The notes beneath the pieces are model-generated. The model made no database searches. It saw only the letters and a program-made list of their open reading frames with translations, and was not told the origin of the DNA. From Bacilli bacterium (lineage in GTDB: Bacteria; Bacillota_I; Bacilli_A; RFN20; CAG-288): a stretch of 64,000 bases of DNA. Shown here in pieces: positions 1,975 to 35,509 of the stretch. The DNA is taken from the NCBI GenBank assembly GCA_022652945.1, contig JALCRV010000003.1, forward strand, positions 88,128 through 152,127, in the 5' to 3' direction. Numbering within the stretch: the first letter of the stretch is position 1; the number at the start of each line of letters is the position of its first letter. The position numbers and the translations under genes are program-made.

Positions 1975-2478
1975 ATGAGAAAGATAAAAAAAGGATTTAC
2001 CTTAGTTGAGTTGATCGTCTCGATGGCCTTAGCGGCTATTTTGATGTCGACTCTGGCTTTCTTTCTTGTCTATATAACTAGAATGCAAGGATACATTCAA
2101 AACGGGGATAAGGAGTTTAAGAACGCTGATGAGTTCAGATTGGTGATTACTTCAAATATTCAGGCTAATCAGGATAAAGAATTGACCTTTTATACGAGAA
2201 CGGATGACAAGGACAATATTAAAACAACAGGTTATAATACGAAGATTTTCAGTTATGAGAGCGGGACTAAGTATTATTACTACGATGCGACAAAAGGTGA
2301 ATACGGAGTCAATAACGGATCTGGTGAGCAGTTCTCTTACCAAGCCAAGATGAACTATCTAATGTCTATCCAGCAAGTCTCGACTTATCAGATGGTGGAG
2401 ATTGACTTACGGAATCCAACTGATTTCACCCTTATTATAAGTTTCAGATTGAATATCAGCCACCTGGTAATGAGTTAA
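1975..2478 (+). CDS. Minor pilin with a prepilin-type N-terminal cleavage/methylation motif
   Basis: 'MRKIKKG|FTLVELIVSMALAAILMSTLAFFLV' is a canonical G|FTLxE motif followed by a hydrophobic helix. Confidence 0.8.
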   Translation: MRKIKKGFTLVELIVSMALAAILMSTLAFFLVYITRMQGYIQNGDKEFKNADEFRLVITSNIQANQDKELTFYTRTDDKDNIKTTGYNTKIFSYESGTKYYYYDATKGEYGVNNGSGEQFSYQAKMNYLMSIQQVSTYQMVEIDLRNPTDFTLIISFRLNISHLVMS

Positions 2479-2542
2479 TATAAACAGATTGTTATTTTTA
2501 CTGATGAATAAAAGTTATAATAAGGCACGGCAATAATAACAA

Positions 2543-5500
2543 ATGGAAAAAGAGAACGAGCGAAAATTAAATAACAAAAAGATAAAAAAGGTAGTTGTGC
2601 TTTCTTTATGCTTTCTTTTAGTCGTCGGTGGAGCGGTGGGTACCACTATATTGGTTAAAAACACTCTAGATGTAAGATCCTTTGAAGAGCAAGCGACCAG
2701 CGCTTTTAATAAGTATTACAACAATTTGGTCTTATCTGATGCGGTTACCATGGGGAATTTAAGGGTTGTTTATTCAGATGGAAATCAATACCAAGTGTTC
2801 TTGGGAAAAAACACAAGTTCTTATTTGGGAAAATGGAACAAAGAAGACAACGCCTTTTCCAATGATTCATCCAAAAACTATCTCATCGATATAAATTCTT
2901 TGGGCCAAAAAGTAATTGTAAACATCAACAAGTTTTCATCCATCACTTCAGATTATAGATCTTCAAAAAAAGATGAAATTATACCGGCCGATGAAGGCAC
3001 TCAATTAACCACAATTGATTCAGATGGAGAAATTGTTGCTAAAACTAGGCCGGTGTTTTGGGGAGCCCCCGTTTTTTATTATTCTGGTAAGGCTTTATGC
3101 AAATATAACCCAAAATATAATGACGGGACAACTGATCAAATGTTCGATACCAGATTCCAAGATTTGTTTATTAGCAACTATCCTTCTGAATCATTATATA
3201 AAGACGCCAACGGACACACATCTTGGGCTAGAGTTTTTTCATCGTCTAAAGATTGCGTAATTCATGGGGCAAAAGAAACAGATTATCCCGTTTCTGACGA
3301 TACAAATTCACTCGTTTTGCCGTCGTATGGAGATTTTTGCTCCGACTTAAGCAGTTATTTTGGTAAAAAAAAGACAACTCCATTTTCCACTGCGGAATCT
3401 TTGGAAATCGATGGAGGCATAACACATATCGGGGATGGAAGCGAAGGAGCCCTGTCTGCTTTTACTGGGTTGATGTCATTAAAAATCGATGCGACAACAG
3501 ACGAGATCCTTGATTCGTCTTATGTCTTCGGAAGGCAAACGGAGGATTTTGCATCCTCGTTAGCCAGCATTAATTTTGGAACGCCCAACGGTATCTTTTC
3601 TATATCCGACGATGCCTTTAATGGAATTAAGGCCCTGAAATCGATAGTCCTTAACTCAAACAATGCTGTCACCCAAAAATGTAAAATTGGAAAGCGAGCA
3701 TTTAAAGGCTGTACTAATTTGGAAAAGGTTAGTTTACCAGATCTCGGGTATATTTCGATTGATTCAGGTGCTTTTCTTGGATGTGATTCATTTGCAAAGA
3801 TTTATTCCGCCCCAGATTTAATGTTTGAAGTGCCTTCTAGTTTTGTATTTGCCTATGCTTCTGGAGCAAACGATGAAAATGGCTTTCCGTTCCCGAGTAA
3901 TATGTTCCTTGATTTTGCTGATGTTAACTCTGAATCGTGTAAGTCATTTATCACTAGTTATAGCGGTTACCCGAGATATTTTTATTTAGGTGCCTTAGGG
4001 ACTTTAGAAGACCGGGTCAACGATTCTCACGAAAGGGTAACTAATATCTTTTCCAATCTTATTACCGATGGGCCAGCCAAAGACGCAAAAGAGATTTATC
4101 TCCCCTCTGCTATTAAATCTGTGGCTCAGGGTAAGTCTCTTTTAATTCCTTACATACATGATGGAAAGGTTGTTGTTCCAGCTGTTCATTCTGCGTTGGC
4201 TACCGGAAGCATCGTGCTTAATCCAGATAACAAGACGACCACTCTAAAATTAACTCAAGATATAGTGCTGTACGGTTCCTTGCAAGTTGGAGGATTAACT
4301 AATTTCGCTTCATCTGTTTCTTATCAGGGGTTTGTAGTTGGAGAATATGCCGAATTAGATTTAAATGGATTCAAAGTGATTGTTGAAAGTGGTGGCTCTT
4401 TAGACATAGCTGGGAATTTAGTTGACTCCAGTCCGTCCAAGACAGGAGAAGTGATAGTTCATAACGGAGGGAAGGTCAAATCTAATTTTGCGCTATGTGA
4501 TTTTAATGGTGGAACCAACACGTTTTCGCGCTTAGGATTAGGAGTTTCGCCTTTTAATTTCTATATGATGCCTTACTTAAACGCGAAGATTCACTTTGAG
4601 TATGGAAGTTCCCTTGTTGGTTATTGTGTTTTGTTTGCGGGAGGGAACCATAATAGCATTGAAGTAAATATGATAGGCAACGAATCTGAATCATCTTTAA
4701 TCGCTTGGGATTCAGAACAGCCCACAAGTTATATTGACAGAACTCAGGAAGATTATCCGACCGTGGTTATAACTGACAAAGATTTATCGAAATACAAAGA
4801 GCATTATAATTTTTACGGCTCTTTCAAATCAACCCCGATGGATTTTGGAGTTATGTCCGGTGAAACTCTTATAGGAATATGCACCGGTTTAATTGATTTT
4901 CCTGTCTCGCCATTTATCGATGTCGCTTTTCAAGGAACGGGAACAAATGAAAAGGGAAAATTGACCATTGGTAACACTTTTATGATGTTACCTGGCTCCA
5001 AAGTTGAAATCGCGCAAAATGAAGATTTGGTTTTTGCGCCCACGCCAAGGATTGACTATTGTTTCAGAACTGGCGTTTGGGGACAACAAGAGTACAATGC
5101 GCCCTATCACTTCTTAACAACGGGTGGTATTACAGGAATATTCGACGATTTTTATCAAAGACTTGGATCGGAAAACAAAGAATCGATTCTTGATATTAAA
5201 GGAAACGTTGTTTTTAAAGAATTAAATGGTATGCCGAAATATGTTTTGGCTGGTAACGTTTTGGCTTCAGATACTACGGTTGAACAGATTTCCCAAAATG
5301 TAAGCAAGATAACTGATGAAGCGGTGGGGATTGTCCCTGAAGGTTATGACACCTTAGATATTAGCAAATACATTGTCAGCCCTTTAAAACTTAATGGTTT
5401 TGTTACTAAACTTGGGACAAATCTTAAGTTAACGGAAGATTCAGCAAGACCGGGAATCTATAACGACACCTCTACAGGGAATTGTTATTTCTTCAAACTG

Positions 5501-8406: not shown

Positions 8407-10547
8407 GAAAGAAACTGATCGCTATCATCTTCCTCTTACCGATCATTATTATCGGTCTTTTATATTCCGTCTCTTATGTCCTGATCGGTAATGTAGTCGA
8501 TGAGCCGGATTCTATTTCCTTTGCTGAATCGACAGCCTTTTTACTCGTGGGTGGGGGAATGGATTTGAAAGTAACGAGCTCTCCAAATAATGAAAAGTTC
8601 GCTTCGAATATCACTTATGTTTCTGATCGAGAGGATATTCTTACCGTCAAGGACAATAAGGCTTACGGCTTAAAATCGGGATCCAGCCAAGTCACAGCTA
8701 GATATAAAGAAACCAATATCACGGATACCTTAAATGTTTTTGTCTACACCCCGCAATCTAAAGAGCTTTATATTATCGATCCCAACACTTCCTATACAGG
8801 CATAACTAGTCAAAAAGCTTACGGTGAATATGATCTAGGCGAAGGATTTATTAAAGAAAGCGGGAAGGTTTCCTTAAAGGCCTTTGATTTTGGAGCTTCT
8901 TTAACTATCGATGGTCAACTGACTCCGAGAGGTAAAGCGGAAAGAGCGAACATTATTAAAGGCGAAGGGAAGCTTTCTTACGATGAGAAGAAAGAGACGT
9001 ATAACATTGAGATCTTAGGAGGAGATGATATAACGGTTCGTTTTGTCTCCCAGGTCGGAGAAAGCTTAGATTACACAATAAAAGTCATTCCGGAGGGATT
9101 TAATGTTTATACCTACGCTCAATTGCTTTATTGCACCAACCATTCTCTAAACGGAGAGAAAGTAGTTTTAAGGAGCAATCTGGAGTCTTATTCGAATTCT
9201 TATTTAGGAGAAGAAACAAAGACCGCTAAAAAGAACACTAACCCTCTGCTTTTAACTCAGCAAGAAAAAGACAGTCTTAAGAATCTCGGACAAGAAGAGT
9301 ATCACTACCTTAAAAGGACTTACGATGAAAAAGATTATTACGTAGAATATCTGACTAGAGAATCTACTTACGATACCAGATATCTTACCAGGCTTAATAA
9401 GAGCACTAAGATCAATATCGGATTATCCTTGAAAAAAGATCTTTATGCCAATGGCTTCACTATCAATTTCCACGCTTTGACTTATCCGACTGGAGATCCG
9501 ACTCTGGTCAAAGGGGTTTATCTTCCTTCCTTAAGCGAGAACGATATCTTCCGTGGTCCTTTAGATTATTGCGGAGTTTTAGCTGATGAAAACAATCAAG
9601 CGGCTGCTTCCGTCGGAGGAGAAGATAACTGCGCTTTAGAAGTCGAAGGAGATAATTTGATCTTATCCGGGCTGATTGTTAAAAACTGTAACACCATTAC
9701 GGCTTTAGCTCAGTTAGATTATGTCGGCACGGTTATCGGGATTAAGCATCAATCGAACGTGAAGATTGAAGATTCGATAATCATGAACGGCAGGAATCTA
9801 GTCAGAGCTTTTTCTAATGATGGAGTGACAGTCTCTCATTGCTTATTAGAGTATGCTAAAGACTTCTTATTACGCCTAGGAGCCGATGAGTTTATCCAAC
9901 TGACGAAGGATGAATTCTTAAGCGGAGGAGATTATAACTATCCGGATGGCGAAAGAATCGGTAATACTCTTGAAGTAGATAACACATATTTTTATGATTC
10001 AGGCTTTTTCTCAATCGGCTTAGAATCTCATTTTAATGGGAGATATCTGTATGACAAAGACGAAATCTTCTCTTATACCTTGCCTTTAGGAGGGATTTCT
10101 AAAGGGACGGATCTGACTATTAAAGGCGATACCCGTTTTTATGACTGGAAAGATGTCGATTCGATCTCAACAGACACCATGCTGCAGGTTAAAGCTGATC
10201 TAGGCGATCTTTCCCAATATCTTTCTAATTTTGATATTGTCCCAATCATTAAAAGGGAATTAGCTAAAGAAGAGAATAAAAAGTTCGCTTTAAATGTAGA
10301 AGGAAAAACTTATCTAAATAGCGCCATAGCTGATTATGGCGGAGGTATTAATAACTCGGTAATTAACTCGAACACTGACCTTACCGCCCTTGGGCTTGCA
10401 AAGCTCGGCCCGGTGGTTTTTGATCCAGTCGAGGATAAATTCTTGGCAAATTGCGCAGGAACAGCCCCCTTTAATTTCTATTTATATCCTTCCGACAGTA
10501 AAATCACATATAAAGACACTCCCAAAACTGGTGATTTAGCTGATTAG
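8403..10547 (+). CDS. Large (714 aa) anchored surface protein with a Big_2-like Ig domain and parallel beta-helix-like repeats
   Basis: It has an N-terminal TM segment 'LIAIIFLLPIIIIGLLYSVSYVLIG'. 'ITYVSDREDILTVKDNKAYGLKSGSSQVTARYKE' looks Big_2-like. 'NLILSGLIVKNCNT...VKIEDSIIMNGRNLVRAFSNDGVTVSHCLL' looks PbH1-like. It is translationally coupled to the permease gene. Confidence 0.55.
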   Translation: MRKKLIAIIFLLPIIIIGLLYSVSYVLIGNVVDEPDSISFAESTAFLLVGGGMDLKVTSSPNNEKFASNITYVSDREDILTVKDNKAYGLKSGSSQVTARYKETNITDTLNVFVYTPQSKELYIIDPNTSYTGITSQKAYGEYDLGEGFIKESGKVSLKAFDFGASLTIDGQLTPRGKAERANIIKGEGKLSYDEKKETYNIEILGGDDITVRFVSQVGESLDYTIKVIPEGFNVYTYAQLLYCTNHSLNGEKVVLRSNLESYSNSYLGEETKTAKKNTNPLLLTQQEKDSLKNLGQEEYHYLKRTYDEKDYYVEYLTRESTYDTRYLTRLNKSTKINIGLSLKKDLYANGFTINFHALTYPTGDPTLVKGVYLPSLSENDIFRGPLDYCGVLADENNQAAASVGGEDNCALEVEGDNLILSGLIVKNCNTITALAQLDYVGTVIGIKHQSNVKIEDSIIMNGRNLVRAFSNDGVTVSHCLLEYAKDFLLRLGADEFIQLTKDEFLSGGDYNYPDGERIGNTLEVDNTYFYDSGFFSIGLESHFNGRYLYDKDEIFSYTLPLGGISKGTDLTIKGDTRFYDWKDVDSISTDTMLQVKADLGDLSQYLSNFDIVPIIKRELAKEENKKFALNVEGKTYLNSAIADYGGGINNSVINSNTDLTALGLAKLGPVVFDPVEDKFLANCAGTAPFNFYLYPSDSKITYKDTPKTGDLAD

Positions 10548-19522: not shown

Positions 19523-19549
19523 AGCCGCTTAATTTTAAGCGGCTTTTTT
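19523..19549. terminator. Bidirectional rho-independent terminator (galM / vsr)
   Basis: A perfect 10-bp stem AGCCGCTTAA-tt-TTAAGCGGCT is followed by TTTTTT. Confidence 0.8.
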
Positions 19550-19979
19550 ATTCTTCACCATAAGGATTTTTAGCTGTTTTATAGGCTTCTTCGACAATAT
19601 CAGCTAGACGGGAAACGTCTTTATTGATGTCATTTTCCCAGAGGCGGATAACTAGATAACCTTCCTGCTGAAGTTTTAAGGTGTATTCATTATCGCGTTT
19701 CATGTTGGTTTCGATTTTCTTTAACCAGTAAGAACGGTGGGATTTGATATCTTTTTTTCTGTTTTCCCAATCTCGGCCATGCCAGAAGTCTCCATCGACA
19801 AAAATAACGATCTTTTCCTTAGGGAAGGCGATATCAGGGTGACCGAGTATTTTCCCGTAGTTAACGCGATAACGGAGACCACGACTAAATAAAGCCTTCC
19901 TAAGCTTTAATTCCGGATTGGTGTTCTTACCTCTGATTAAGGCCATTTCGGCGCTGATTTGTTCTTTTGATCTTTTCAT
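19548..19979 (-). CDS. vsr: Very-short-patch repair endonuclease (Vsr)
   Basis: 'ISAEMALIRGKNTNPELKLRKALFSRGLRYRVN...HPDIAFPKEKIVIFVDGDFWHG...YWLKKIETNMKRD...GYLVIRLWE' matches the Vsr pattern. Confidence 0.85.
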   Translation of the reverse strand: MKRSKEQISAEMALIRGKNTNPELKLRKALFSRGLRYRVNYGKILGHPDIAFPKEKIVIFVDGDFWHGRDWENRKKDIKSHRSYWLKKIETNMKRDNEYTLKLQQEGYLVIRLWENDINKDVSRLADIVEEAYKTAKNPYGEE

Positions 19980-31122: not shown

Positions 31123-31449
31123 ATGGATTCTCTAGAGACTTTGAAAGAAGAGATTGCGAAGTTTGTTCACGATCGTGACTGGGATCAATTCCATTCACCA
31201 GCTAATTTGGCTAAGTCTATTTCCATTGAAGCTAACGAATTGTTGGAATGTTTCCAATGGGATGAAGAGCATTTTGATAACGAAGCTGTAAAAGAAGAAC
31301 TGGCGGACGTGATCAATTACTGCATCCAGATGTCTTTAGTCTTGAATGTCGATATTAAAACAATCGTTGAAGATAAACTGAGAAAAACTGAAAAGAAGTA
31401 CCCGGTTGAGAAATGCAAAGGAAAGTCTACTAAGTACAATAAGTTATAA
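31123..31449 (+). CDS. MazG-like nucleotide pyrophosphohydrolase (YpjD-like)
   Basis: It has 'RDWDQFHSPANLAKSISIEANELLECFQW' and 'EELADVINYC'. The RBS CAGGAGGAAAAA precedes the ATG at 31123. The ORF is open from 31048. Confidence 0.8.
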   Translation: MDSLETLKEEIAKFVHDRDWDQFHSPANLAKSISIEANELLECFQWDEEHFDNEAVKEELADVINYCIQMSLVLNVDIKTIVEDKLRKTEKKYPVEKCKGKSTKYNKL

Positions 31450-31512: not shown

Positions 31513-32352
31513 ATGAAGAAAGCTATCATGGCCATCATGTACGATTTCGATAAAACGCTCTCTTTAGACTACATGCAAAACTACGGCTTTATCCAAGCTT
31601 TAGGCATGACTCCGGAAGAGTTCTGGAAAGAGACGAATGATTTTTCAAATAAGTACGGAGCGGATAAGACTCTTTCTTATATGTATATGATGATTCTTAA
31701 GTGCAAGGAAAAGAATATTCCTTTGACAAAGGAATGGCTCGGATCTTTAGGAACTAACATCAAATTCTTTAAGGGAGTCACCACTTGGTTTAAGAGAATC
31801 AATGATTACGGATTGTCTAAAGGCGTCCAAGTCGAGCACTATCTGATCTCTTCAGGTAACAAGGAAATCGTCGATGGCTGCTTGATCGCTAAGGAGTTTA
31901 AGAAGATCTTCGGTTGTGAATTTATCTTCGACGGTCCGAAAAATGAACCGGTCTGGCCGAAGTTTGCGATTAACTATACGCAAAAGACCCAGTATTTCTT
32001 CCGTATTTCTAAAGGTGCCTTAAATCCTTCCGATGAAGAACAAGTAAATACTAAATCACCTAAGAGAAGAATCCCTTATCACAACATGGTTTACCTGGGG
32101 GATGGAATGACTGATATCCCAGCGATGATTCTCGTCCATAATAATGGCGGCAATTCTATCGCCCTTTATTCCCACGGTTCTAAGAAGAGCGACGTAGTTC
32201 AGCTTTTAAAAGACGATCGGGTTAACTATATCTGCCGAGCCGATTATTCCGCCGGCTCAGAACTCGATACGGTTATGAAGCTTATCGTCGACTCCATCTC
32301 CATCAAGAATACCTTGGAAAGAAAGCAGGAGAAGACAGTCGTTAAAGAATAG
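31513..32352 (+). CDS. HAD-superfamily hydrolase
   Basis: It has motif I 'MYDFDKTLS' (DxDxT) and motif IV 'LGDGMTDIPAM'. Confidence 0.75.
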   Translation: MKKAIMAIMYDFDKTLSLDYMQNYGFIQALGMTPEEFWKETNDFSNKYGADKTLSYMYMMILKCKEKNIPLTKEWLGSLGTNIKFFKGVTTWFKRINDYGLSKGVQVEHYLISSGNKEIVDGCLIAKEFKKIFGCEFIFDGPKNEPVWPKFAINYTQKTQYFFRISKGALNPSDEEQVNTKSPKRRIPYHNMVYLGDGMTDIPAMILVHNNGGNSIALYSHGSKKSDVVQLLKDDRVNYICRADYSAGSELDTVMKLIVDSISIKNTLERKQEKTVVKE

Positions 32353-32370: not shown

Positions 32371-32402
32371 AAAGGGACAGCCTTCTAACGCTGTCCCTTT
32401 TA
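32371..32402. terminator. Bidirectional rho-independent terminator
   Basis: AAGGGACAGC-cttctaac-GCTGTCCCTT followed by TTT. Confidence 0.75.
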
Positions 32403-32423: not shown

Positions 32424-33023
32424 CTATAGACGTTTGCCGCACTTTTTGCAGAAGACAGCATCGCCATCGTTGATGGTGCCGCAGTCGGGGCATAACTTAG
32501 TCGGCTTGCTGGCATTTAAGGGTTTAGGAAGCTTGGCTCCGCAGGTGGTGCAGAAAGCCATGCCGGCGGGGTTCTTAGCTCCGCAGATCGGGCAGGTGAC
32601 TCCACCTTCCGAGACAGAATCAATACTGGAGGTAGTATCAGCAGCTTTCTCCGGGAAAATAGTTGAATGTGCTTCCTGAGGTTCGCTGGGTTGATTTGTT
32701 GTGTTGCCACCAAAGAGATGAATGCCGTTTTGATTGGATTTATTGAAGTTCATCGAAGAACCATTGGCGGTTCTGAATCCGTTTCCGCGGCTGAAGGAAA
32801 ATAATAAAGAGCCGACGAAAAGCAAAGCGAATCCTCCGAATGAGAACAGGACAATAAAAGGAGACATAAAATCCTGTCCGGTTAAGGCGGAAGAGAAGGC
32901 GATGATGAAAGGAGTGAAAAACAGACCGAAACCCAGAACCATTAAAATGATTGAGAGGACTTTAAAGACTTTCTTTCGTTTTTCTTGCCCTTCGTTTTTA
33001 TTTGGATTCGGATTGTATTCCAT
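32424..33023 (-). CDS. 2-TM membrane protein with a C-terminal double zinc ribbon
   Basis: It has two hydrophobic helices and then 'CPICGAKNPAGMAFCTTCGAKL...CPDCGTINDGDAVFCKKCGKRL'. The RBS AAAGGAG precedes the ATG at 33023. The ORF is open to 33047. Confidence 0.7.
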   Translation of the reverse strand: MEYNPNPNKNEGQEKRKKVFKVLSIILMVLGFGLFFTPFIIAFSSALTGQDFMSPFIVLFSFGGFALLFVGSLLFSFSRGNGFRTANGSSMNFNKSNQNGIHLFGGNTTNQPSEPQEAHSTIFPEKAADTTSSIDSVSEGGVTCPICGAKNPAGMAFCTTCGAKLPKPLNASKPTKLCPDCGTINDGDAVFCKKCGKRL

Positions 33024-33090
33024 TGTTCTTTTCTCCTTTAATAACAACAGTAGTATATTGCTGTTTAAGATTAAAAAGAAACAGTTTAAC

Positions 33091-33181: not shown

Positions 33182-33289
33182 TTAAGCTTTCTTCTGATCG
33201 TTAGCGTTAGTAGCCGGCTGAGGGTTGGCTTGCGTATTAGTAGCCTTCACATCAGCAGTCTGAACGTTCTTCTTATTCTTCTTGCTCAT
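33182..33289 (-). CDS. Small hydrophilic protein (35 aa), absent from the ORF track
   Basis: An ATG is preceded by AAGGAGGT at an 8-nt spacing. It encodes MSKKNKKNVQTADVKATNTQANPQPATNANDQKKA, and a hairpin plus T-run follows. Confidence 0.45.
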   Translation of the reverse strand: MSKKNKKNVQTADVKATNTQANPQPATNANDQKKA

Positions 33290-33574: not shown

Positions 33575-33604
33575 TTAGAAAAAAGCACATAAAAATGGTA
33601 TAAT
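33575..33604 (+). promoter_or_regulatory. Putative promoter of the TIR-like gene (TTAGAA-18-TGgTATAAT extended -10)
   Basis: A perfect TATAAT sits at 33599-33604 with TG at 33596-33597, 42 nt upstream of the ATG. A TAACC/GGTTA hairpin lies in the leader. Confidence 0.4.
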
Positions 33605-33646
33605 TTACTTAACCTGAGATTTGCGGGTTAGATAAGAAGGTATCAG

Positions 33647-34192
33647 ATGGAAAACGAAAACAAGCCTTTAAAGGCCTTCGTTTGTTGCTTTGATGACGAT
33701 AAGGCTTACGAGGAAAAACTCCAAGCTCTTTTAGGCGAGGAAAATATCGTCCTCGGTTCGAAGTTCAAAGATGCGGACACTAAAGACGTTAAAGCCTTTA
33801 TGAAGTCTTTAAGAGAAGGTGAATTAAAAGACACCAACGTGACTATCGTCCTGATCGGAGAGAATACGTGGAAACGTAAGTTGATCGATCTGGAGGTCTT
33901 GGCCTCCATGCAGGATGACCCTGCTAAAAAGAGAAACGGTATCATCGGGTTGATTCTTCCTAGCCGTCCCGATTATCAGAAGGGTCATTTTTACCGTTAC
34001 ACGATTCCGCAAAGAGTCTACGATAACTATCCCAACGGATACGTGAAGATTTATAACTGGAAAGAGGATGCCGGGTTTGTTAAACGGATCATGGCTAAGT
34101 CGGTTGAGAGAAAGGATATGCTGGTTCCTAACTTGGATCGGGCGCCTTACTCTAAAAACAAAGCTCCGACAGCTAAGAAGTGGGATAAGTAA
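33647..34192 (+). CDS. ThsB-like TIR-like domain protein (DUF1863-type)
   Basis: 'KAFVCCFDDD...' together with 'DTNVTIVLIGENTWKRKLIDLEVLASM...NGIIGLILP...VKIYNWKE' follows the ThsB/TIR-like pattern: FxSF-xxD, then VxxVLIGxxTxxRxWVxxEI, then IIGIxL. Confidence 0.65.
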   Translation: MENENKPLKAFVCCFDDDKAYEEKLQALLGEENIVLGSKFKDADTKDVKAFMKSLREGELKDTNVTIVLIGENTWKRKLIDLEVLASMQDDPAKKRNGIIGLILPSRPDYQKGHFYRYTIPQRVYDNYPNGYVKIYNWKEDAGFVKRIMAKSVERKDMLVPNLDRAPYSKNKAPTAKKWDK

Positions 34193-34204
34193 CTAAAAGT
34201 CCAT

Positions 34205-34273
34205 AAAAAAAGCAGAGCTGGAGATCGTTGATTCTTAGATGTTTCAGCAATCAACCTGAGCTCTGCTTTTTTT
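34205..34273. terminator. Long bidirectional terminator hairpin between the convergent TIR-like and repeat-protein genes
   Basis: The outer stem is AAAAAAAGCAGAGCT...AGCTCTGCTTTTTTT and the inner stem is GTTGATT...AATCAAC. Confidence 0.75.
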
Positions 34274-34895
34274 AATTGCTTTTCTTGTTGATTTCGTAAT
34301 GGAAGAGTTTCTTCAGGTCGTCTTCTTCAAGGAAAGGATAAAGGGCGTTGACATCGATCGAAGAATTGCCATGGATATAGGCATCTACCGCCTCTGATAA
34401 AGCTTCGTCGCTGACGAAAGGAAGGTATTTAGAGAAATCCTTTCCATTAGTCCAGGCATCCTTAAAGGCGTCGTCGATATCATCATCATCCATAAAAGGA
34501 AGCAGGGAGGAGAGACTTGTTCCGTTAAAGGAACCGCCGTTTTGCTTAAGAAAAGCTGCAAGTTTTTTGATGTCGTCATCATCTAGGAATGGCAATAGCT
34601 TATTAAGATTGACGTTTGTTCCTTTTCCGGAGATGATTTGGTCCACCAACTTACTTAAATCGTCATCATCGACAAAAGGCAGAAGCTTAGTAATATCCAG
34701 GCCTTTTTCTAAAAACTGGGAAAGCAGCGTCCCCAGATAATCATCGTCGAGGAAAGGATAAAGATTTTCCAATCTGACGTTATCGATCATCTGCGTGGGG
34801 CTTTCCATAATACGTTGAGCCAAAAGCTCCAGATCTTCCTCGTCTAAGAAGGGGAGCATGCTTTTGACACTATGGAAGTTTCCGTTGTTGAACAT
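34272..34895 (-). CDS. Acidic tandem-repeat protein (7 repeats of L-[LY]-P-F-[LVM]-D-D-D-D-[LI]-x-x-L), unknown family
   Basis: Seven repeats at ~26-31 aa spacing are visible: 'MLPFLDEEDLELL', 'LYPFLDDDYLGTL', 'LLPFVDDDDLSKL', 'LLPFLDDDDIKKL', 'LLPFMDDDDIDDA', 'YLPFVSDEALSEA' and 'LYPFLEEDDLKKL'. Confidence 0.7.
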   Translation of the reverse strand: MFNNGNFHSVKSMLPFLDEEDLELLAQRIMESPTQMIDNVRLENLYPFLDDDYLGTLLSQFLEKGLDITKLLPFVDDDDLSKLVDQIISGKGTNVNLNKLLPFLDDDDIKKLAAFLKQNGGSFNGTSLSSLLPFMDDDDIDDAFKDAWTNGKDFSKYLPFVSDEALSEAVDAYIHGNSSIDVNALYPFLEEDDLKKLFHYEINKKSN

Positions 34896-34896
34896 G

Positions 34897-35058
34897 TTAT
34901 TTTTCCTTCTTTCTTAACGAATATGATTCTTTATCATCCATCCAATAATTGACGGTTCTTTTCAACTGTTCGCTTTTATAAAGCTTCTGTTCCTCCAAGG
35001 CGGTTTCCTGAATTAAATTGAAGGCCTCATAAGAAGGATTGTTATTTTTTATATACAT
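34897..35058 (-). CDS. Small ORF (53 aa) bridging the XRE and repeat-protein genes, absent from the ORF track
   Basis: The ATG at 35058 lies 11 nt after a GGAGG and overlaps the XRE gene 3' end. The TAA at 34897-34899 lies 1 nt before the downstream ATG. It encodes MYIKNNNPSYEAFNLIQETALEEQKLYKSEQLKRTVNYWMDDKESYSLRKKEK. Confidence 0.45.
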   Translation of the reverse strand: MYIKNNNPSYEAFNLIQETALEEQKLYKSEQLKRTVNYWMDDKESYSLRKKEK

Positions 35059-35509
35059 AATGTGCTTTGCCTCCGTTTAGATAAACGTTTTCCCCGGTAG
35101 TAAGTTTAGGAAGAAGTTCTTGAATGTCGACTCTCAGTTCTTTATCTCTTATAGCTTGCAGAATCTGCAATCTTTCTTCCGGTGAGAACTGATAGAAAAC
35201 ATCTCCTAAATCAACTTTTAAGTCTCCTCTGATAATCGCCTTAACTACATATTCTCTGGAATGTCCGTTAAATAGATCGTGAGGATCGATCGTCTTTTTT
35301 TCGCTTAAGCAGAGGATGTCCTCAAAGGAGACGGAGAAAAGACGAGACATCTCAAGAAGGGAATCGATCGAAGGCAGGGACTGGCCTAGTTCCCACCTGG
35401 AGACCGCTTGACGGGTAACGAAAAGCTTTTCCGCCATTTGATCTTGAGACATTTTGTTCTTCGACCTGAGGTCGTTGATTTTGTTGCCGATGGCTTTTGA
35501 ATCCAGCAT
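35042..35509 (-). CDS. XRE-family HTH regulator with a C-terminal extension
   Basis: 'IGNKINDLRSKNKMSQDQMAEKLFVTRQAVSRWELGQSLPSIDSLLEMSRLFSVSFEDIL' is a classic HTH_3 domain. The C-terminal ~85 aa contains 'FYQFSPEERLQILQAI' and 'VDIQELLPKLT', which resemble the downstream repeat unit. Confidence 0.85.
   Translation of the reverse strand: MLDSKAIGNKINDLRSKNKMSQDQMAEKLFVTRQAVSRWELGQSLPSIDSLLEMSRLFSVSFEDILCLSEKKTIDPHDLFNGHSREYVVKAIIRGDLKVDLGDVFYQFSPEERLQILQAIRDKELRVDIQELLPKLTTGENVYLNGGKAHYVYKK

Follow-up and report, generated by a model that had tools for sequence, protein, structure and literature searches.

Thoeris systems and a solitary TIR gene

The closest described counterpart of the gene reported here is ThsB of the type I Thoeris system of Bacillus cereus MSX-D12 (BcThsB; PDB 6LHY and 9B7D), in which the mutation E85Q abolishes Thoeris defence. 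Other types pair their TIRs differently: type III combines multiple TIRs with a SLOG effector, and type VII a TIR with the SLATT effector ThsH (Yirmiya et al. 2025, bioRxiv 10.64898/2025.12.03.692087). In known Thoeris systems, the genes form operons or are tightly linked. A systematic survey of Thoeris arrived at 29 predicted effector types and set stand-alone TIRs aside as probable NAD+-depleting effectors. Here, we investigated a stretch of 64 kb from the genome of a Bacilli bacterium (contig JALCRV010000003.1, positions 88,128 to 152,127), which we call the window, and within it a solitary gene for a TIR protein of the ThsB family. Table 1 lists the coordinates of all features discussed.

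The window protein resembles BcThsB in being a single-domain TIR of about 180–190 amino acids, and the two have in common a central motif, VLIGxxTxxRxWVxxEI, that includes the catalytic glutamate (E85 there, E83 here). They are about 22% identical over the aligned core. Unlike the B. cereus gene, the window gene is monocistronic and has no adjacent SIR2-SLOG ThsA, and its locus is vertically inherited and appears to be part of the core genome rather than a mobile defence island. The N-terminal motif F-x-S-[FY]-H of BcThsB, EcThsB and the subfamily to which the window protein belongs is replaced by F-V-C-C-F-D. Partners of the type III and type VII kinds do occur beside relatives of the window protein at 28–38% identity, a link made through the partner domains only, without comparison of the TIRs, and these partners are absent from the window and from the loci of its clade orthologues. 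Thoeris systems of types I–XI have an effector next to the TIR, such as a SIR2-SLOG, TM-Macro, SLOG, caspase-like, DUF2270, SLATT or CMP-hydrolase protein, with both in one operon. Because the window gene has no adjacent effector and forms no operon, we do not regard it as a Thoeris system.

A better match is the class of stand-alone TIRs, since the window gene is likewise a single TIR gene outside any multigene operon. That class is defined by exclusion, and the subfamily is uncharacterized in the literature that we found; the window gene differs from the class by its long vertical inheritance and by the loss of S-x-H. Finally, DNPH1/Rcl and the nucleoside 2'-deoxyribosyltransferases (NDTs) belong to the same flavodoxin-like fold class and also use a catalytic glutamate. 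They carry a tyrosine in strand βA, whereas the window protein has F11 at the likely equivalent position, as matched by motif. The window TIR joins the poorly studied solo TIRs and is no new kind of system.

A divergent ThsB-family protein with an intact catalytic core

The original prediction, made from the DNA alone, described a ThsB-like TIR protein of 181 amino acids with the motifs 'KAFVCCFDDD', 'NGIIGLILP' and 'IYNWKE' and with E83 in the position of the ThsB catalytic glutamate. All of its quoted motifs are present in the translated open reading frame (ORF), and the family assignment holds. The Pfam profile ThsB_TIR (PF08937) matches amino acids 16–107 with 39.2 bits, above its gathering cutoff of 21.2 (E = 9.4e-10), and the PADLOC ThsB1 models match with E = 1.3e-8. 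The same Pfam scan gave a weak match to TIR_2, and an NCBIfam scan returned no model for the protein. In a sequence search against solved structures, the only significant matches were the BcThsB chains 6LHY and 9B7D.

We then modeled the protein with AlphaFold2 from an alignment of 117 subfamily sequences, consisting of 5 clade orthologues and 112 other members. The model (predicted local distance difference test score 93.2, predicted template-modeling score 0.90) is one compact α/β domain of alternating β and α elements. The top Foldseek matches in the PDB are EcThsB (8WCF), a B. cereus TIR (8FZ9), the ThsB-Tad3 complex (9B7D) and EcThsB2 (8V6T), all with a probability of 1.00, template-modeling (TM) scores of 0.46–0.52 and E values of about 1e-3. 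MyD88 and plant RUN1 TIRs come next after the ThsBs. DNPH1/Rcl and NDTs are remoter matches, at a probability of 0.82–0.90, and weaker than the ThsBs. As the TM-scores are only about 0.5, the protein is a divergent TIR. A search of a viral structure library gave weak generic matches only, and matches in phage records were just partial and distant, in Streptococcus prophages and satellites.

E83 aligns with the glutamate of 'RYEIMKS' in BcThsB, which is E85, and both E83 and D81 are invariant in 117/117 subfamily sequences. Further core residues kept by the clade are G71, T74, W75, R77, K78, R96, G98, P105, P121, R123, N127 and W138. By its profile match, modeled fold and predicted catalytic glutamate, 33647–34192 is a real, intact gene for a ThsB-family TIR protein with predicted enzyme activity.

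The N-terminal strand βA and the loop that follows it have diverged. The 112 other subfamily members all have H8, S13 and H16 (100%), while all 5 aligned clade orthologues have L8, C, V or I at position 13, and D16. FFSFHYQD of BcThsB and FYSFHFDND of EcThsB both align with the subfamily motif, F-I-S-Y-H-H-x-x-D, so the serine and histidine lost from the clade are part of a motif that validated ThsBs also have. The PF08937 match begins only at amino acid 16. The βA loop of TIR NADases borders the NAD+ pocket. Because H8, S13 and H16 are replaced, substrate binding or catalysis may be altered in the clade. The clade keeps the βA phenylalanine, F11. Phe or Ala is usual in NADase-type TIRs at the site where the His-ADPR-type ThsBs and DNPH1/NDT carry a Tyr that bonds to the catalytic glutamate, and the equivalence of F11 to this Tyr/Phe/Ala position was matched by motif rather than by superposition.

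An old gene in a variable slot, without a local effector

A word-index search found four close homologues of the TIR protein, at 91, 62, 59 and 50% identity. An exhaustive search of 1.84 billion representatives returned 409 matches at E ≤ 1e-3 and one at E ≤ 1e-30. The GTDB species representatives hold no close relative, with a best match of 38%. Genomic contexts for the clade were collected from the close TIR homologues and from further lineages reached through a neighbouring HAD-superfamily gene; the relatives were viewed with flanks of 5–10 kb, and the window with its full length. Six lineage groups carry the TIR, which by our locus numbers are window/L001, L011, L101, L007, L014 and L106/L112.

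No effector was found in these contexts. PADLOC and Pfam identified no SIR2, SLOG, Macro, SLATT or other Thoeris effector among the 54 window proteins, which agrees with the original prediction that SIR2, SLOG and Macro proteins are missing here. Neither a ThsA-type nor any other effector lies next to the TIR in the flanks of the six orthologue lineage groups; the original claim of a ThsB-like TIR without a ThsA-type effector holds at every examined orthologue locus. Neighbours of the distant TIR relatives (see below), 255 proteins in all, were used in a six-frame phmmer search of the window and yielded generic matches only (Fe-ADH, Vsr and ABC ATPases). Apart from the HAD gene and a lone Vsr, the few defence-flavoured matches of the window are generic ones of the ATPase or helix-turn-helix (HTH) kind.

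Upstream of the TIR, most TIR-bearing lineages have the usual order GuaA-PfkB-Fe-ADH-MntP-MazG-like-HAD. The HAD gene lies upstream in 6/6 groups and is the sole constant neighbour; in the window, it is two genes upstream. The MazG-like gene precedes HAD in most clade lineages and is gone from L106/L112, where the HAD-TIR adjacency stays. On the 3' side of the TIR, the genes vary by lineage: Tex; PfkB with an ADP-ribosylglycohydrolase and an ABC transporter; ManC; an ABC transporter; or an XRE operon.

Several lineages hold other cargo in the slot after HAD. In L104 (5936–7036, corresponding to L111 6894–8033), the slot holds an AAA_21 ATPase of 366 amino acids. PADLOC PDC-M12A matches the whole of it (E = 1.9e-112), AbiLi also matches (E = 1.8e-32), and there is apparently no second system gene beside it. 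A 200-amino-acid AAA_33 kinase-like protein occupies the slot in L105 (5934–6536), L110 and L177, and glycosyltransferase-like genes, recognized by reading of the sequences rather than by profile search, do so in L179. L105 also has a DUF3990 protein that is a defence candidate (PDC-M13/M42/M10-like) and a 165-amino-acid gene inserted between Fe-ADH and MntP (2142–3487). The slot on the HAD side thus accepts replacement and sometimes holds defence-type genes. Both L104 and L105 retain MazG-HAD and are missing the TIR; the two TIR-less lineages are sisters, and therefore one loss of the TIR suffices.

The descent of the gene was followed through its neighbours. Neighbour-joining trees of the TIR and HAD share their topology, with a Pearson r of 0.74 between the two sets of pairwise distances. 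TIR identity across the compared lineages is 50–62%, with L106 the most divergent at 44%. In the same lineages, the syntenic genes are 38–58% (PfkB), 54–68% (Fe-ADH), 69–73% (MazG), 72–87% (HAD) and 78–83% (GuaA) identical, so the TIR values of 50–62% fall inside the range of syntenic housekeeping genes. Between the window and L001, the 91% relative, the ratio of nonsynonymous to synonymous substitution rates (dN/dS) of the TIR is 0.038 at a dS of 1.4, dS being near saturation in every pair except this closest one; HAD, MazG, Tex and Fe-ADH have values of 0.007–0.023. The GC content of the TIR gene, overall and at third codon positions, matches that of its neighbours. From the congruent trees, the dN/dS and the matching composition, we conclude that the TIR gene is old, vertically inherited and under strong purifying selection, and that it is not a relic. 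Recent horizontal transfer was considered and rejected on the same composition and tree congruence.

One assembly, GCA_000987605.1 (LAHS01), holds two lineages of the locus, L007 and L104, whose HAD proteins are 74% and 79% identical to that of the window. With two lineages in it, the assembly behaves like a mixture or a metagenome and not like a single genome.

A transcription unit of its own

The promoter and terminator that the original prediction assigned to the TIR gene both stood up. The extended −10 promoter scores best among the promoter-like sites in 30.7–36.6 kb and is conserved in relatives: AAAATGnTATAAT is kept about 40 nt before the TIR start codon in L001, L007, L014 and L101, and L011 has TATACT. 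At the position of the ribosome-binding site, the orthologues have GGAGG or GGAGGG. The bidirectional terminator, described as strong, forms a hairpin of ΔG −34.4 kcal/mol (z = −5.45, with 0/200 shuffles as stable), and every orthologue locus has a terminator 3' of the TIR. A further terminator, which separates HAD from the TIR, has equivalents after HAD in L007, L011 and L101. Since its own promoter and terminator are conserved in relatives, the TIR gene is monocistronic.

Two other arrangements were tried and dropped. Co-transcription of MazG, HAD and TIR is contradicted by the terminator after HAD, the TIR's own promoter and the unrelated genes inserted between. A conserved hairpin in the 5' untranslated region, between the −10 element and the ribosome-binding site, was seen by eye in 3/5 lineages and is not stable beyond shuffled sequences (z = −0.4 to −1.9). 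An Rfam search of the window, including the 357-nt intergenic region before the TIR, found no element.

Distant relatives and their partners

A scan of GTDB species representatives with a 9-sequence alignment gave 80 loci with a TIR at 28–38% identity, 69 of which have a callable TIR ORF. Their neighbours were called by a simple longest-ORF heuristic. A recurrent partner or a second TIR lies within two genes on the same strand in 55/69 loci, and 11/69 look solitary. Among the partners are proteins of about 680 amino acids that join TIR_2 to SLOG (LD_cluster2), and DUF4231/SLATT_1 proteins with two transmembrane segments. The commonest, directly downstream at about 30 loci, is a helical protein of about 160 amino acids (for example L044 2815–3297, L095 10501–10986 and L086 10492–10983), which also exists in a version of about 220 amino acids with an N-terminal transmembrane segment (L047 1275–1943 and L085 9015–9680). 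The 160-residue protein has no Pfam or PADLOC match and may be one of the unnamed predicted Thoeris effectors. An Acinetobacter plasmid relative lies in a TIR-TIR-TPR-TIR operon.

Because these relatives at 28–38% identity sit in Thoeris-like operons, the subfamily is linked to immunity, and its solo members recur as a minority. A different setting is seen in L030, L067 and L075 (also L070 and L088), where at about position 10001 the TIR relative lies between a MazG+MazG_C (PF18722) gene and an HMUDK_hel (PF18723) 5-hmdU-DNA-kinase-like gene. This cassette is nucleotide or DNA-modification in style rather than a classic Thoeris operon.

Two Treponema metagenome-assembled genomes have a protein of 374–381 amino acids after the TIR relative (L020 10562–11707 and L021 5071–6195), with no Pfam or PADLOC match. 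The gap to the TIR is 9 nt in L020 and similarly small, by coordinates, in L021, and the protein is a possible partner.

A proposed single-gene TIR and its rivals

The original prediction left three options: a stand-alone NADase, a signal generator for an unrecognized effector nearby, or a defence remnant. The first remains, and the other two are disfavoured for reasons given below. E83 and the core are kept, F11 is a phenylalanine of the NADase type (as matched by motif), no partner was found and solo relatives exist; therefore, we favour a single-gene TIR. More specifically, we tentatively propose a self-contained immune TIR NADase, with both the immune role and the substrate presumed, and we put its chances at a little below even. 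Also in its favour are the family and fold, the monocistronic unit, the dN/dS of 0.038, the Thoeris-like operons of the relatives, the AbiLi-like and other cargo of the slot in sister lineages, and the view in the literature that stand-alone TIRs are likely to deplete NAD+.

The clade is uncultured and, by gene content, probably a low-GC, Firmicute-like lineage of wastewater or digester metagenomes. On this proposal, its ancestor would have acquired the TIR beside the core HAD phosphatase gene, in a short variable stretch, and the gene would then have been inherited vertically without the effector genes that about 80% of its relatives have nearby. Expression from the gene's own promoter would be constitutive, and the protein would stay inactive until a phage component, the presumed trigger, causes self-association, probably as an oligomer. 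The E83 active site would then cleave NAD+, the likely substrate, with depletion or an ADP-ribose (ADPR)-type product as the outcome. Sensor and effector would be one polypeptide.

Several observations weigh against this proposal. The clade has replaced three residues that are invariant in 112/112 other members, two of which, S13 and H16, are common to BcThsB and EcThsB. The 181-amino-acid model has no extra sensor domain. The setting looks like ordinary core genome and not a defence island, its genes being housekeeping ones, although defence candidates occur in the slot of L104 and near it in L105. The TIR has been kept at one site while HAD has diverged to only 70–75% identity, a degree of stability that is unusual for a defence gene. 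Finally, the partner search reached 64 kb, and an effector may lie elsewhere in the genome.

That last point leads to a split Thoeris-like system, in which the TIR would make a cyclic ADPR-type or other ADPR-derived messenger for a receptor-effector encoded outside the 64 kb. We consider this unlikely, with a modest chance of being right. The protein clusters with the ThsB signalling TIRs, 80% of the subfamily relatives come with an effector next to them or with additional TIRs, and with at least 29 effector types known or predicted, many of them unannotated, an unrecognized one could be missed; long vertical retention would also fit a receptor encoded in the core genome. Such a layout would nevertheless depart from the operonic or tightly linked arrangement of known Thoeris systems. 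There is no candidate within ±30 kb and none conserved in the 8–10 kb flanks of the six lineage groups, and the sister lineages lost the TIR without visible co-loss in the examined flanks.

A domesticated, non-immune TIR has, in our judgement, a similarly modest chance. The protein would then have a housekeeping role, regulatory or in NAD or nucleotide N-glycosidic chemistry, possibly with HAD and MazG in nucleotide clean-up or turnover. The constancy of HAD, immediately or nearly upstream in 6/6 groups and even in L106/L112 where the upstream synteny is broken, speaks for this, as do the congruent TIR and HAD trees, the dN/dS of 0.038, the neighbour-like composition and the core-genome context. 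The loss of the ThsB S-x-H motif, the remote similarity of the fold to the DNPH1/Rcl/NDT N-glycosidases and the unrelated MazG+MazG_C gene that flanks distant TIRs in L030, L067 and L075 point the same way. However, a terminator divides HAD from the TIR in every lineage, so that they form separate units, unrelated genes have inserted between the two, and L104 and L105 hold MazG-HAD yet lost the TIR. The HAD family, with 6810 homologues, has no TIR in the members sampled outside the clade. Furthermore, the βA residue is Phe and not the Tyr typical of DNPH1/NDT, and the N-glycosidase structural matches are weaker than those to ThsB.

A fuller version of this idea is that a ThsB-type TIR was domesticated beside HAD over family-level time, without any Thoeris effector and with remodelling of the βA loop (H8L, S13C and H16D) around a retained catalytic glutamate, and now either carries out a non-immune or hard-wired NAD- or nucleotide-derived reaction or feeds a core-encoded receptor. 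We think this quite unlikely. If true, a domesticated TIR would be a bacterial case of an immune signalling TIR co-opted into physiology.

HAD and MazG were also examined as TIR partners in their own right and rejected, since the association is seen in a single clade related by vertical descent and the transcription units are separate; they are kept only within the minority reading of a domesticated TIR. This HAD or MazG occurs in 0/80 distant TIR loci.

That a local neighbour (the two-transmembrane zinc-ribbon protein, the 35-amino-acid peptide or the XRE/53-amino-acid/acidic-repeat operon) is the effector, as the second option had it, is very unlikely. These genes are physically close, the two-transmembrane protein could be a membrane effector, and the TIR shares its terminator with the convergent operon. 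They are, however, all on the opposite strand and lineage-specific: among TIR-bearing lineages the zinc-ribbon gene and the XRE operon are found only in the window and L001–L006, the XRE/acidic-repeat operon exists without the TIR in L104/L111, and the 35-amino-acid gene, present in 3/6 groups, is missing from L007 and L014. We give hardly any credit to the idea that the gene is a functionless, decaying leftover of a Thoeris system. The missing partner and the loss of three N-terminal residues that are invariant elsewhere would fit it. Against it stand the dN/dS of 0.038 at a dS of 1.4, an intact, full-length ORF in each of six lineage groups, the most divergent of which is 44% identical, and the conservation of the promoter, ribosome-binding site, terminator and catalytic core.

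Solo ThsB-like TIRs are routinely discarded in surveys of TIR immunity, and the single-gene TIR of the window offers a clean study case. Sister lineages that carry other cargo provide natural controls, and the clade itself supplies a naturally varied N-terminal motif. Its function would show whether ThsB-type TIRs act alone, signal to an unlinked receptor or have non-immune roles.

Feature coordinates and neighbouring genes

TABLE 1 Features of the TIR locus, in window coordinates
Feature	Position	Strand	Basis
MazG-like NTP pyrophosphohydrolase, 108 amino acids from ATG, syntenic	31123..31449	+	PF12643, E 2.6e-16
HAD-superfamily hydrolase, PADLOC PDC-S34, anchor of variable slot	31513..32352	+	PDC-S34, E 8e-108, full length
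Terminator hairpin after HAD, shared with convergent zinc-ribbon gene	32371..32400		11-bp stem, 6 GC pairs
Two-transmembrane double-zinc-ribbon protein, insertion between HAD and TIR	32424..33047	-	DZR/Zn_Ribbon matches, two hydrophobic segments
35-amino-acid Lys/Asn-rich small protein gene (MSKKNKK...)	33182..33289	-	Conserved N-terminus, AGGAGG Shine-Dalgarno
Extended -10 sigma-70-type promoter of TIR gene, TAGAAA-17 nt-TGgTATAAT	33576..33604	+	10/12 matches plus TG motif
Ribosome-binding site GAAGG, 6 nt before ATG	33636..33640	+	Read from sequence
Coding sequence, 181-amino-acid single-domain ThsB-family TIR protein	33647..34192	+	ORF with ATG start; profile, structure and alignment evidence
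Strand βA and following loop 'LKAFVCCFDDD' (amino acids 8-18), diverged from ThsB motif	33668..33700	+	117-sequence alignment
Codon GAG, E83, predicted catalytic glutamate in helix αC	33893..33895	+	Aligned to E85 of B. cereus ThsB
Bidirectional intrinsic terminator, shared with convergent acidic-repeat operon	34204..34272		Long hairpin, A-run and U-run flanks
XRE regulator / 53-amino-acid / acidic-repeat operon, convergent with TIR	34272..35509	-	HTH_3; 7x LPF[LVM]DDDD

The HAD gene belongs to a family whose members, where sampled outside the clade, lie in housekeeping contexts without TIR or MazG. Homologues reach 60% identity and more in Bacilli metagenome-assembled genomes, the relatives at about 63% being labelled 'Bacilli bacterium', and no examined HAD locus at or below 68% identity has a TIR. 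We found no mention of PDC-S34 in the literature searched. These contexts suggest that the PDC-S34 HAD may be a conserved flank of the variable slot and not a defence protein, and its status as a defence candidate may come from guilt by association rather than from function. This would matter to anyone who counts PDC-S34 matches as defence systems.

The genes between HAD and the TIR, and those convergent with it, are as the original prediction described them: a protein with two hydrophobic segments and a double zinc ribbon, a 35-amino-acid ORF, and the XRE operon. The zinc-ribbon protein has homologues in the window and L001–L006, and none in L007, L011, L014, L101 or L106. The 35-amino-acid ORF is a real small gene between HAD and TIR. 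Its product, a Lys/Asn/Ala-rich protein of 35–41 amino acids with an invariant MSKKNKK start, occurs in 3/6 lineage groups (window/L001; L101, 6908–7015; and L011/L013, with L011 7552–7677).

The convergent operon encodes an XRE regulator of 155 amino acids, a peptide of 45–53 amino acids and a protein of about 205 amino acids made of seven 'L(L/Y)PF(L/V/M)DDDD' acidic repeats. No Pfam family matches the repeat protein above threshold (TTRAP, 26.8 bits against 27). The orthologous operon of L104/L111 (L104 7046–8253) matches with E = 2e-68 for the XRE regulator and E = 1e-46 for the repeat protein, and since these genes are present there without the TIR, they are not obligate partners.

Downstream of the TIR region, the window continues with Tex and then a polysaccharide cluster. 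Further upstream lie glycoside hydrolases, an aldose epimerase, a PreP peptidase, GuaA, PfkB, Fe-ADH and MntP. A Vsr homologue (19548–19979, minus strand; PF03852, E = 2e-26), without an adjacent cytosine methyltransferase, has the aldose epimerase and small unannotated ORFs as its neighbours.

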